Positions 25,408 to 42,566 of a DNA stretch of 64,000 bases are shown here, piece after piece. The first letter of the stretch is position 1. Each line of letters begins with the position of its first letter. Source of the stretch: an uncultured Candidatus Saccharibacteria bacterium (GTDB taxonomy: Bacteria; Patescibacteriota; Minisyncoccia; Phycocordibacterales; CAYSCM01). Made by a program: the position numbers and the translations under genes. The stretch covers positions 164,240 through 228,239 of the forward strand of contig CAYSCM010000001.1 in assembly GCA_964429815.1 (NCBI GenBank), given 5' to 3'. The notes under the pieces are model-generated. The model did not search any database, had not been told where the DNA came from, and worked only from the letters and a program-made list of their open reading frames with translations.

Positions 25408-25934
25408 ATGAAGAAAACCAGCAAAAACAACAGCATGCCAAAGAAACGCGCCGCCCTATCGACCGGGCGCTCATTCGTAAACTTTTAACCGACGTACTGG
25501 AACGCCTCCAGATAACCGTTGAGGCGCTCGAGGAGATCGACCACCCGGCCCACCCCATTTTTTTGGTGAAGACACCCGATTCGGCGGTTCTCATAGGCAA
25601 CCGGGGAGAGAGCCTCCAAGCACTCAACTATCTCTTGCGAAAAATGGTCGAGCAAGAGGGTGACGGAGAGGGCATGGAGCAGTTTCTCGTCGACGTCAAT
25701 CACTACCAAAGCAAAAAAATAGACGAGCTGCGGCAAAAAGCGCTCATGCTCGCGGAGCGCGCTCGTCTCTTCAAGCACGACGTTGAAATGAGCCCCATGA
25801 GCGCCTACGAACGCATGATCGTGCACGCAACATTCGCCGATCATCCCGACGTCGGCACAGAATCGCAAGGCGAAGGAAAGTTCCGCCGCGTGGTCATCAA
25901 ATATAAGGGTTCAGGAAGCGGCGGAGGTACCTAA
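25404..25934 (+). CDS. Jag/KhpB R3H-domain RNA-binding protein
   Basis: KH-like plus R3H (ERMIVHATFADHP) domains, in the conserved position after yidC. Confidence 0.8.
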   Translation: MNEENQQKQQHAKETRRPIDRALIRKLLTDVLERLQITVEALEEIDHPAHPIFLVKTPDSAVLIGNRGESLQALNYLLRKMVEQEGDGEGMEQFLVDVNHYQSKKIDELRQKALMLAERARLFKHDVEMSPMSAYERMIVHATFADHPDVGTESQGEGKFRRVVIKYKGSGSGGGT

Positions 25935-27199
25935 CGGGCGCCCGTCGATGTGGCACTGTCGCTGAGCCTCACGCTCCAGAGTGAGAGATCTTTTTTGTTT
26001 TGAAAGAGAAGCTCGTCTTCGTTAGGTGAGAGCGAGAGATACTGCACGTCGAAGAGACGCGTGCCTTCACTGCTGAAGCGATAGAAGAGGGTTGAAGCAC
26101 CTGTTTGTGCGTCGATATGCCAAATGTTATCGGAGAAACTAGCTTGCCCCTGGTACCACAGGTCGGGATAGGTACCATTCGTATTTCCCGTAACTGCAAA
26201 CGGCACCGCACAGAGTATCTCCGTTGGTTTTTTGACGCTCCAGAGGCACTTGTCGGGGATGGTGGCGACGGCTGCATCGATGACTTTCCCTGTTCTAACG
26301 TTGAGGATATGCATAAGGATGGTAGAACCGATGGTCTCGCTCCACAGAATACGCTTGCCGTCCGCGCTCGGGAGAGCTGTGAGCCCCGAAATGTCGCCAA
26401 GGAGGCGCCCCACGGTGCCCGAGGAGGGATTCACGCTGTAAAGATAGCCCGGAGTGTTTCCGGAGGGTTTGGAGAGAAGAAGCGGGGTTCCTCCGAGCCA
26501 GTAGGGAAGCCACTCGGATATAGGCGAGGAAAAGAGCTTGGTGATTTTCCCGGTAGAAATGTTGTCGACGATGACCGAAGAACCCTGATTCTCCTTGCGG
26601 ATGTAGAGAAGCTGCTTTCCTTTGCTATCAGGTGCTACGGCGAGAATATTGTCTTCGAGATAGGTGCCGCCGAGCGACCCTCCGCCCCCGTTTGCGTTTA
26701 TACGGCCGAGGAACGTCTGTATGCGCTCGTCGCTCTCCGAGAGGAGACGCAAAAGCAAGATTATCGGGCTGTCGAGCCAGAGCGCCTGGTAGATCTTAGG
26801 TATAGTTGTATTGGTAACGCGCTTCGTCTCGCTATTTTCGAAGTTAGCTTCGTAGACGTTGCCATCTTCGCGTTCAATGTAGCGAATGAACTCGTTGCCA
26901 TTGGCGAGGAACGAGGCATACCCCGACACCGGCTTTCCGGATACCAGGTGCAGACGCGGTGATGTGCTGGCCTGCCCGGAGAGTTCTGCTCCGGTGTCAC
27001 CTCCTTGTGGAAAGGGCTCTCCCGAACCAGTGCCACCTTGCCCCGTTGGACTTTCAGAAATTTGTCCGAATATAGGCTGTTGAGCTTGCGATGAGCTCCT
27101 AGAACTCGCGGTTTTCCCTAAGAAATAATAGCTGCCAACCCCAAGTAGCACGAGGCCGAAGAAAAGTCCGAGAGTGATGTAGAGGGTCTTTCGTCTCAT
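25931..27199 (-). CDS. membrane-anchored TolB-like beta-propeller protein (last gene of the T4SS-like operon)
   Basis: N-terminal TM segment. PD40-like repeats SADGKRILWS and LSPNEDELLF. Confidence 0.5.
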   Translation of the reverse strand: MRRKTLYITLGLFFGLVLLGVGSYYFLGKTASSRSSSQAQQPIFGQISESPTGQGGTGSGEPFPQGGDTGAELSGQASTSPRLHLVSGKPVSGYASFLANGNEFIRYIEREDGNVYEANFENSETKRVTNTTIPKIYQALWLDSPIILLLRLLSESDERIQTFLGRINANGGGGSLGGTYLEDNILAVAPDSKGKQLLYIRKENQGSSVIVDNISTGKITKLFSSPISEWLPYWLGGTPLLLSKPSGNTPGYLYSVNPSSGTVGRLLGDISGLTALPSADGKRILWSETIGSTILMHILNVRTGKVIDAAVATIPDKCLWSVKKPTEILCAVPFAVTGNTNGTYPDLWYQGQASFSDNIWHIDAQTGASTLFYRFSSEGTRLFDVQYLSLSPNEDELLFQNKKDLSLWSVRLSDSATSTGAR

Positions 27200-41601: not shown

Positions 41602-42566
41602 GAAGAAAGCGTAAGCTTGAGGTTATTCACGAGCATAAAGCTTCCTAGGGTGCGGAAGGACTGGTTGAGCGCGGCTTCTCGCGCCTCATAGCCGCTCATG
41701 GCGACGAAGGCGACGAGAGGGTCGGTCGCGATGGTCTCGAGGTCGGCGAGCGTTGCCTTCATGCCCGAGAGAGCGTTGAGGAGTCCCACATGTGCCGAAA
41801 GTGCGTCGCGCGGAACGTTCATCGACACGAGCGCGCGGATACTTTCCCCATAGAGCGCGACGTCGTGCTTGTAGGTCATCATCCCGTTTGGATCTTGACC
41901 GCTGATGGCATTCTGGAGCGTGAGAAGCTCGTACTCTTTGATGGAAAGGACCGGTGCGAGCGCGGCGCTGAGGGCACGGTTGTATGCGGCAAGCGTCGAC
42001 GATGAGGTGCCGGTGACGGAAACGTCGCCGGCTGCGTACACCGTTGGTTTGGTCGCGACGTTGCCGCTTGCGGCTACGGCATTGACGACCGCCTGCTCAT
42101 CCTCGGGGGTGAGCGTCTGGCCGCCCTGCTTTTTGCTCAAATAATTTTTGAACAGATTGATGGCAAGCGCGTCGGTGTTGCTGAGGCCATTGCCGGGGGC
42201 GGTACGAGCGGTAAGGTCGAGCGTCGATCCTGGAGACGTGACAGACGGACTTTTTCCCTCCCCCGGTGTGAGAGGGTCGCGGCCCTGCGCGACTTCCTGT
42301 CCGTCGGAGACCCCGTCGCCGTCGGTGTCGGGATTGTGCGGATCGGTGCCGCGGAGTTGTTCTTCCCAGTCGGGAAGGCCGTCCCCGTCACTGTCCTTAC
42401 TTGCCGACGCTATAAGAGCGCTACTTATAGCATCTTCCGAGCTCGCAAGTGAGGGGGAGGATGGGGTTTTTGGTTGTAGGAGCGTGAAAAAGGCGACTAA
42501 GGCGACGAAAAGAGCCACCACAATGAAAACAAGTACCAGCCCTCTGCTTGGTAGCCACTTGTACAC
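41598..42566 (-). CDS. membrane-anchored protein with thrombospondin-type-3-like calcium-binding Asp repeats (first gene of the operon)
   Basis: N-terminal TM segment. DSDGDGLPDWEE...DPHNPDTDGDGVSDGQE repeats. Confidence 0.5.
   Translation of the reverse strand: MYKWLPSRGLVLVFIVVALFVALVAFFTLLQPKTPSSPSLASSEDAISSALIASASKDSDGDGLPDWEEQLRGTDPHNPDTDGDGVSDGQEVAQGRDPLTPGEGKSPSVTSPGSTLDLTARTAPGNGLSNTDALAINLFKNYLSKKQGGQTLTPEDEQAVVNAVAASGNVATKPTVYAAGDVSVTGTSSSTLAAYNRALSAALAPVLSIKEYELLTLQNAISGQDPNGMMTYKHDVALYGESIRALVSMNVPRDALSAHVGLLNALSGMKATLADLETIATDPLVAFVAMSGYEAREAALNQSFRTLGSFMLVNNLKLTLSS

Follow-up and report, generated by a model that had tools for sequence, protein, structure and literature searches.

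The type IV secretion systems (T4SSs) closest to the one described here are those of the Patescibacteria, whose VirB4 proteins form a monophyletic clade nested in the mating-pair-formation class MPF-FATA (Quinonero-Coronel et al. 2025, PMC12102498). In that survey, TrsD, PrgI, VirB6 and VirB2-like pilins are encoded near virB4, VirB4 itself is encoded as two polypeptides, the genes lie in proximity to dnaA, dnaN and ksgA in Paceibacteria, and relaxases occur in only 103 of 3,035 genomes. Transposon sequencing (Tn-seq) of Southlakia epibionticum, the one species tested, showed that its epibiotic growth requires a homologous cluster in which neither a relaxase nor a coupling protein is recognisable (Wang et al. 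2023, PMC10633639). Such systems are a recognised newcomer in a 2025 review of T4SS nomenclature (PMC12857230), and the role of the Patescibacteria T4SS is still "completely unknown" according to another review (PMC11665869). We analysed a stretch of 64,000 nucleotides (positions 164,240 to 228,239 of contig CAYSCM010000001.1; hereafter the window), in which thirteen consecutive minus-strand open reading frames (ORFs), g1 to g13, run from position 42566 down to position 25931. The locus is very probably the chromosomal, origin-proximal T4SS cluster of Patescibacteria in its Paceibacteria version, with a separate LCAT-family hydrolase cassette inserted in it.

The comparison set consisted of 80 loci from species-level reference genomes, the best VirB4 matches of 579 relatives found. 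All 80 were searched with every window protein, and two loci from the closest relative (L083 and L084) were added, for a total of 82. Eleven of the 13 cluster genes keep their order in the 80 related genomes and in the relative whose VirB4 is 93% identical. The conserved order reads uvrD-ksgA-(small opposite-strand gene)-g1-g2-g3-(g4)-g7-g8-VirB4-(g10)-g11-g12-g13, followed by jag-yidC and then by dnaA-dnaN; the closest relative has the same order, gene for gene. The locus thus resembles the Paceibacteria arrangement of the Patescibacteria-clade T4SS (PMC12102498) in a VirB4 that is probably of the Patescibacteria type, in PrgI/VirB3 and TrsD genes beside virB4, in a VirB6-like protein and a VirB2-like pilin, in its location near dnaA, dnaN and ksgA, and in having neither relaxase nor coupling protein nearby. 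It differs in that the LCAT cassette stands between a Pro-rich gene (g4) and the PrgI gene, and in a block of low G+C content at third codon positions (GC3) that reaches from the VirB6-like gene through the insertion. The composition of the cluster is the norm for its clade and already published, and it represents no new kind of system. The first-pass annotation, made from the letters alone, had rightly seen a T4SS-like apparatus here; the unusual composition it also proposed is not borne out, with the same eleven genes standing in the same order in 80 related Paceibacteria genomes. What the present analysis contributes is a gene-by-gene map of the Paceibacteria T4SS with its eleven conserved genes. 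Relatives of VirB4 at about 80% identity run into the thousands, and those with names come from Candidatus Kaiserbacteria, Paceibacterota, Parcubacteria or Patescibacteria; because of these names, the window is placed in a Paceibacteria chromosome (candidate phyla radiation, CPR; Kaiserbacteria-like) and is taken to be its origin region. The same CPR names, with VirB4 identities of 78-85% (best tblastn segment) over the 80 loci, indirectly favour a place for g9 in the Patescibacteria VirB4 clade.

The motor is encoded by g9 (29780-31612, minus strand; 610 aa), which covers the middle and P-loop domains of a VirB4 ATPase in NCBIfam and Pfam searches. It scores 374.2 bits against the NCBIfam model for VirB4-like CD1110, NF045971 (cutoff 325, E 1.3e-111), spanning model positions 184-733 of 752, and also matches TIGR00929 VirB4_CagE (E 3.6e-35) and the Pfam TraG P-loop domain (78.3 bits). 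Walker A (AKSGAGKS) and Walker B (LFIVDEA) are both read from the sequence, in line with the intact motifs reported earlier, and g9 is assigned to the VirB4 family with a predicted intact P-loop. A Pfam DUF87 match (the HerA central domain) at residues 263-324 could be read to mean that g9 is a HerA/FtsK-type translocase and its neighbours belong to an unrelated system, the outcome that the first-pass annotation had named as contrary to its own proposal. In NCBIfam, however, HerA reaches only E 0.025 with no qualifying stretch, as against a CD1110 match over 550 residues that lies above cutoff, and PrgI, TrsD, VirB6-like and pilin genes adjoin g9. We regard a HerA/FtsK identity as extremely improbable.

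Directly upstream of g9, g8 (31615-32250, minus strand) encodes a TrsD/TraC-like protein of 211 aa. It matches TrsD model NF041427 at E 5.7e-7, under the full-length cutoff, aligns to positions 2-118 of the 752-position CD1110 VirB4 model, and matches the Mbov_0397 VirB4 model at E 1.1e-8; a protein identical to g8 bears a precomputed match to PF26593 (TraC-like). By these matches g8 is the N-terminal domain of VirB4 made as a separate polypeptide, with VirB4 split in two between g8 and g9. The next gene, g7 (32257-32700, minus strand; 147 aa), lies two genes upstream of VirB4 and encodes a PrgI/VirB3-like protein with two transmembrane (TM) helices; its Pfam PF12666 score of 44.7 bits, against a cutoff of 27, agrees with the VirB3-like protein proposed at first reading. 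The pilin gene is g12 (27201-28154, minus strand; 317 aa), which matches PF18895 (T4SS_pilin) with 28.5 bits over residues 100-164 (cutoff 26.6). This VirB2-like pilin has Cys-rich N- and C-terminal extensions, and its conservation across relatives is confined to the pilin core.

A polytopic membrane protein is encoded by g3 (37499-39943, minus strand; 814 aa). It begins with a signal or anchor sequence and a disordered exposed segment, continues with about six to seven TM helices (residues 122-430), and ends in a helical tail of about 300 aa. Three of 25 syntenic orthologues match TrbL/VirB6 (PF04610), and several database homologues bear PF04610 or TrbL_3 (PF19590). An AlphaFold2 model built from a 71-sequence alignment has a mean pLDDT of 73.6, with the TM core above 90. 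When this model was searched with Foldseek against 350,542 PDB chains, the top eight matches (probability 0.85-1.0) were all entries for the R388 T4SS stalk (TrwJ/VirB5-TrwI/VirB6), and the match lengths (188-272 of 260-270 aligned) agree with TrwI/VirB6. The likeness to R388 TrwI/VirB6 (PDB 7O3V, 8RT9, 8RTD) lies in the predicted TM core; g3 differs from it in being about three times longer, with its disordered exposed N-terminal segment and its helical tail, and in an identity of 12-16%. From the orthologue Pfam matches and the predicted fold, we interpret g3 with moderate confidence as an extended VirB6-like protein, so that the earlier call of an 814-aa VirB6-like polytopic protein receives moderate support.

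Detection across the 80 related loci varies by gene. Matches were found for g8 in 79 loci, g7 in 77, g11 in 74, g3 and g13 in 61 each, g12 in 55, g2 in 53, g1 in 40, g4 in 24 and g10 in 12; the low counts arise because the proteins are short or fast-evolving and some contigs are truncated. Wherever g7 was found it lies directly upstream of g8. VirB4 is 78-85% identical (best tblastn segment) in all 80 loci and g8 has a median identity of 65% over its 79, while the median for DnaA in the same comparison, 59%, falls below VirB4. For a secretion system this is an unusually conserved motor. Median identities of g1, g3 and g13 are 27-30%, and surface parts fall to 20-35% across relatives. The same gradient appears against the closest relative: 93% for VirB4 and 88% for g8 (TrsD), then 67% for g7 (PrgI), 61% for g11, 57% for g2, 56% for the g12 pilin core, 54% for both g1 and g10, 48% for g13, 39% for g3 and 31% for g4. 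Housekeeping neighbours are mostly 75-89% identical in that comparison, with ksgA at only 52%. Because VirB4 and TrsD stand at 93% and 88% and the membrane and exported parts at 31-67%, the cytoplasmic motor is strongly constrained and the exposed parts evolve fast. The fast-evolving exported proteins are likely determinants of host specificity and may be in contact with variable host surfaces.

A Pfam scan covered 39 window proteins, all but three of them at least 150 aa long, and found no VirD4-type coupling protein, relaxase or VirB11 among them, as had been noted at first reading. The sole PF00437 protein (13290-15020, plus strand; 576 aa), encoded next to ruvB, is of the PilB/GspE type with T2SSE and MshEN domains, and is no VirB11 but a motor of a type IV pilus or of type II secretion. 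The cluster resembles conjugative T4SSs of the MPF-FATA class (pGO1 Trs, pCF10 Prg, the CTn2 CD1110 family) in a VirB4 above the CD1110 cutoff with TrsD- and PrgI-like genes immediately upstream. It differs from them in that no relaxase and no VirD4/TcpA coupling protein were detected among the scanned window proteins and no VirB1-type hydrolase or VirB8-like protein within the cluster, in the presence of a VirB2-like pilin, and in its fixed chromosomal locus beside oriC-region genes. If the cluster instead served DNA conjugation as part of an integrated conjugative element, whose transfer genes it would represent, the affinity of VirB4, TrsD and PrgI to Gram-positive conjugation proteins would be explained, and a tyrosine recombinase is indeed encoded in the window, at 57982-58893. 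That recombinase stands 15 kb from the cluster among housekeeping genes, synteny with dnaA, dnaN, yidC, ksgA and uvrD is fixed in 80 species-level genomes, the scanned window proteins include neither VirD4 nor a relaxase, and relaxases are rare in Patescibacteria generally (103 of the 3,035 genomes surveyed; PMC12102498). A conjugative element is thus highly improbable, and we reject this reading because of the conserved synteny and because no relaxase or coupling protein was found.

A chromosomal CPR cluster beside dnaA with neither relaxase nor coupling protein nearby fits the non-conjugative, host-interaction reading that is standard in the literature (PMC10633639, PMC12102498), and the suggestion of host interaction rather than conjugation in the first-pass annotation is consistent with this setting. 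Genes SEML1_0006-0019 of S. epibionticum (Saccharimonadia), an epibiotic CPR bacterium, likewise encode a monoderm-type T4SS that includes pilin genes, and among them too no coupling protein or relaxase can be recognised. The present cluster differs in belonging to Paceibacteria, in having one pilin gene with Cys-rich extensions versus an array of six, and in having no peptidase or lysozyme genes after virB4. A candidate exported peptidoglycan hydrolase that combines two LysM domains with one Peptidase_M23 domain is encoded 7 kb from the cluster (49269-50186, plus strand), and this LysM-M23 peptidase could supply the wall-opening activity not found within it.

In the host-interaction reading, the pattern known from T4SS biology suggests that VirB4 with its separate N-terminal domain, VirB3 and VirB6 would form a translocon in the cytoplasmic membrane of a single-membrane cell. 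This translocon would assemble a VirB2-type pilus or surface structure, with the pilin as either the polymerised product or a conduit, and the fast-diverging exported proteins might build or decorate a structure for host contact. Because no relaxase or coupling protein accompanies the cluster, the substrate is more likely to be a protein or another macromolecule than conjugative DNA. The same absence of coupling protein and relaxase among the scanned window proteins would also suit a machine that imports DNA or other host macromolecules, as the ComB T4SS of Helicobacter and the Ced system of archaea do. Nucleotide synthesis is missing in Patescibacteria, and in S. epibionticum competence genes are dispensable while the T4SS is essential, from which a role in uptake has been proposed (PMC11665869). 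Sequence gives no indication of direction, though, while a VirB2-like pilin and fast-evolving exported proteins fit surface contact and VirB4 is closest to conjugative monoderm systems; import appears unlikely here, with some modest chance of being right.

Several points weigh against the interpretation as a Patescibacteria-type, host-interaction T4SS. The search covered 64 kb, and another part of the genome may encode a relaxase or coupling protein; VirD4 homologues are indeed far from virB4 in most Patescibacteria (PMC12102498). Pfam, NCBIfam and PDB profiles revealed nothing like VirB1 or VirB8 in the cluster, though folds were not predicted for g10, g11 and g13, one of which might still resemble VirB8 in fold. 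Six conserved genes (g1, g2, g4, g10, g11 and g13) have no assigned role. g3 itself has no direct Pfam family match, and its fold matches have modest statistics (E 0.017-0.32, target-normalised TM-score at most 0.50). The substrate, the direction of transport and the formation of a pilus are all inferred, and the recombinational origin of the g3-g6 block, discussed below, is drawn from base composition only.

The two cluster genes outside the conserved order are g5 and g6, which were found in none of the 80 related T4SS loci and in neither of the two closest-relative loci. g5 (33444-36440, minus strand) encodes an alpha/beta hydrolase of 998 aa that matches Pfam LCAT (PF02450) with 47.2 bits over residues 285-617 (cutoff 21), carries an MBG_2 domain (57.5 bits, Pfam) and a C-terminal PxKF domain (97.9 bits, NCBIfam), and begins with a classical Sec signal peptide, read from the sequence. 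The 998-aa secreted hydrolase with an AHSNG elbow recognised at first reading is thus well founded. Without exception, 28 homologues retain the nucleophile elbow (H362-S363-N364-G365), D572 and H614, and from this invariance D572 and H614 are the presumed further members of the catalytic triad. g5 shares this A-H-S-N-G elbow and the invariant Asp and His with the LCAT/PDAT/LPLA2-type hydrolases (PF02450), and differs from them in being bacterial, Sec-exported and multidomain (MBG_2, PxKF) and in its pairing with a four-TM protein; it is a probable phospholipase or acyltransferase. Comparison with the PDB, by sequence and by family profile, returned no usable match. The partner, g6 (33043-33441, minus strand), is a 132-aa four-TM membrane protein encoded directly downstream.

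The distance from the VirB6-like gene to the PrgI gene is 4798 bp here, compared with 358-2359 bp in 61 relatives. Homologues of g5 number more than 1,300, with variable N- and C-terminal domains, and all the named ones are from CPR. In four of four other genomes examined, the LCAT homologue sits among unrelated housekeeping genes away from T4SS genes (FtsK/RecA and L10/L12; DnaE/RNase HII; glycogen and type IV pilus genes; MreB/RRF), and in all four a small four-TM protein of 116-148 aa, homologous to g6, is encoded directly after it. These cassettes of LCAT gene and small partner lie at L081 10001-13348, L085 8001-11505, L086 8001-11375 and L087 8001-11753. By this comparison g5 and g6 constitute an independent two-gene cassette, common in Patescibacteria at varied sites, and its presence here is read as a lineage-specific insertion because it is missing from 82 related loci and its homologues lie elsewhere in four of four genomes. 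The literature searched contains no mention of such an LCAT-like two-gene cassette. In the closest relative, an opposite-strand gene of the 23S_rRNA_IVP (four-helix-bundle) family lies between the Pro-rich gene and the PrgI gene (L083/L084, 8180-8551), and small insertions seem to concentrate at this spot. The 150-nt spacer upstream of g5 holds a 38-nt perfect palindrome (36497-36534) with 17-bp arms and a TATA loop, which contains TATAAT on both strands. The LCAT homologue of L086 is likewise preceded, at about 7915-7950, by a perfect palindrome that differs in sequence but is built alike, with 15-bp arms around a TATA loop.

Position alone would allow g5 to be a dedicated T4SS part or effector, either a VirB1-type protein that breaches the envelope or a translocated substrate, co-expressed to attack or harvest host lipids: the gene is surrounded by T4SS genes of the same orientation and starts 150 nt after g4, its catalytic Ser, Asp and His are invariant, and the cluster has no VirB1 homologue in Pfam or NCBIfam. 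CPR bacteria are unable to synthesise lipids and presumably obtain lysolipids from their neighbours, and phospholipases have been proposed as factors that breach the host envelope (PMC11665869). Against such a role, neither the closest relative nor any of the 80 related loci has g5 in its T4SS cluster, homologues of g5 stand among housekeeping genes away from T4SS genes in four of four genomes, its Sec signal peptide means that the T4SS is not needed for exit, it is accompanied by a small membrane protein of its own, and its composition is unlike that of the VirB4 block. We give little credence to g5 as a dedicated component or effector. As a stand-in for VirB1 it was rejected on its absence from 82 loci, its homologues elsewhere and its own Sec signal peptide, and on the same grounds the slot for a VirB1-type protein or effector in which the first-pass annotation had placed the lipase finds no support.

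On the reading of g5 and g6 as an inserted cassette, it would have landed between g4 and the PrgI gene, within a low-GC g3-g6 block seemingly recombined from another Paceibacteria genome, and the hydrolase, exported by Sec, would probably act on membrane lipids outside the cell. A further idea, to which we attach only a slim chance, is that the cassette was recruited to work with the T4SS, with the surface structure holding the host while the Sec-exported hydrolase or acyltransferase strips fatty acids or lysolipids from the host membrane, to the benefit of a bacterium unable to make lipids. If true, lipid acquisition would for the first time be tied by genomic evidence to the Patescibacteria T4SS, and a widespread LCAT-like CPR cassette would gain a role. 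The cassette itself points to a widespread, undescribed family of exported hydrolases in bacteria that need the lipids of others.

G+C content and GC3 are low over 33.0-39.9 kb, that is, across g3-g6 (33043-39943). GC3 is 0.45-0.49 in g3-g6 and 0.47 in the g12 pilin gene, compared with 0.75 in g8 and g9 and 0.66-0.69 in g1, g2 and g7. A GC mosaic with an AT-rich tract had been described from the first reading; the tract is real, and it extends over 33.0-39.9 kb rather than 33.0-36.4 kb, with the pilin gene low as well. In 58 relatives, the VirB6-like gene trails VirB4 in GC3 by no more than about 0.06, and the deficit is for this reason specific to the genome studied here. The simplest reading of the composition is that the g3-g6 block, cassette included, was recombined in from a lower-GC member of the Paceibacteria. 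Low GC3 in both g3-g6 and g12 suggests recombinational replacement of surface-exposed parts.

The six remaining conserved genes encode membrane and exported proteins. The first gene of the cluster, g1 (41598-42566, minus strand; 322 aa), is conserved and encodes an N-terminal membrane anchor followed by Ca-binding TSP3 repeats (Pfam TSP3_bac, 49.9 bits, cutoff 25), in keeping with the thrombospondin-type Ca-repeat protein predicted earlier. g2 (39940-41601, minus strand; 553 aa) encodes a conserved, T4SS-linked protein that is exported, contains Cys and is alpha-helical, its C-terminal part forming a long helical bundle; it was considered as a VirB5-type stalk or tip protein and rejected for want of a fold match to VirB5/TraC/TrwJ. 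The Pro-rich protein of the first reading is g4 (36591-37493, minus strand; 300 aa), which, as read from its sequence, has a conserved N-terminal region of about 100 aa and a Pro-rich disordered tail. It is fast-evolving and, where detected, always sits between the VirB6-like gene and the PrgI gene. g10 (29163-29777, minus strand; 204 aa) is by hydropathy profile a small polytopic membrane protein, and its N-terminus is disordered; it has no family match in Pfam or NCBIfam, and its core is conserved in 13 orthologues, always directly after VirB4.

g11 (28144-29163, minus strand; 339 aa) is an exported protein with weak immunoglobulin (Ig)-like signals: 11 of 21 orthologues have weak BiPBP_C, Ig or PKD matches, and its family profile gives weak Hoc and Ig matches among PDB sequences. 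It is probably built of Ig-like or beta-sandwich domains. The last cluster gene, g13 (25931-27199, minus strand; 422 aa), encodes an N-anchored exported protein with weak TolB matches (14.7 bits and E 0.011 against TIGR02800; family profile E 0.0048 over about 190 residues of TolB structure 7mx5). It may possibly adopt a beta-propeller fold. The TolB-like propeller suggested from the letters retains these weak matches, and TolB itself was rejected, the score of 14.7 bits standing against an equivalog cutoff of 343. Family profiles of g2, g11 and g13 found nothing VirB8- or VirB1-like among PDB sequences.

The thirteen ORFs lie exactly at the coordinates given in the first-pass annotation (25931-42566). 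The many 4-nt overlaps it described come to two junctions; one junction has a 1-nt overlap, another an 11-nt overlap, and the others are gaps of 1-6 nt, apart from larger spacers of 150 nt before g5 and 342 nt before g7. The 342-nt spacer holds a plus-strand gene for a 96-aa protein (32744-33034), the repeat-protein gene already noticed near 32.7 kb, which divides the cluster into two blocks. Because of this opposite-strand gene between g6 and g7, together with the 150- and 342-nt gaps, the gene layout implies at least two transcription units in place of the single 13-gene operon first proposed. The 96-aa protein is His-rich, contains three copies of an E-x-R-G-x-x-(I/V)-Y-x-T-x-H-H-P-type repeat, and has no Pfam match and no signal peptide. 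It is conserved in the closest relative only, where an ORF in the same place and orientation (L083/L084) encodes a 66% identical protein (E 2e-47).

On the g13 side the cluster is flanked by jag/KhpB (25404-25934) and yidC (24679-25407), both on the plus strand, and by dnaA (22664-24049) and dnaN (21326-22426) on the minus strand. On the g1 side lie ksgA (43154-43933) and a UvrD/PcrA helicase gene (43935-45869), both on the minus strand; directly upstream of uvrD is an 896-aa ORF (46205-48895, minus strand) which, like a 351-aa ORF at 52693-53748 (minus strand), has no Pfam match at E 0.01. Between ksgA and g1 a divergent plus-strand gene (42612-43142) encodes an exported small protein of 176 aa. 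It has no family match in Pfam or NCBIfam, a homologue in the same place and orientation occurs in 15 of the 80 loci and also in L083/L084, and the protein is a possible additional accessory to the cluster.

Promoter and terminator consensus scans gave results not above shuffled expectation. A DnaA-box scan of the window returned 11 matches against 7.3 expected, none clustering near dnaA, and was uninformative; the origin is therefore called from the adjacency of dnaA and dnaN and from the minimum of cumulative GC skew at 25-26 kb. The plus strand is G-rich over 26-47 kb. Given this skew minimum and the G-rich plus strand, the whole T4SS cluster, directly beside the origin region, is oriented head-on to the presumed rightward replication fork.

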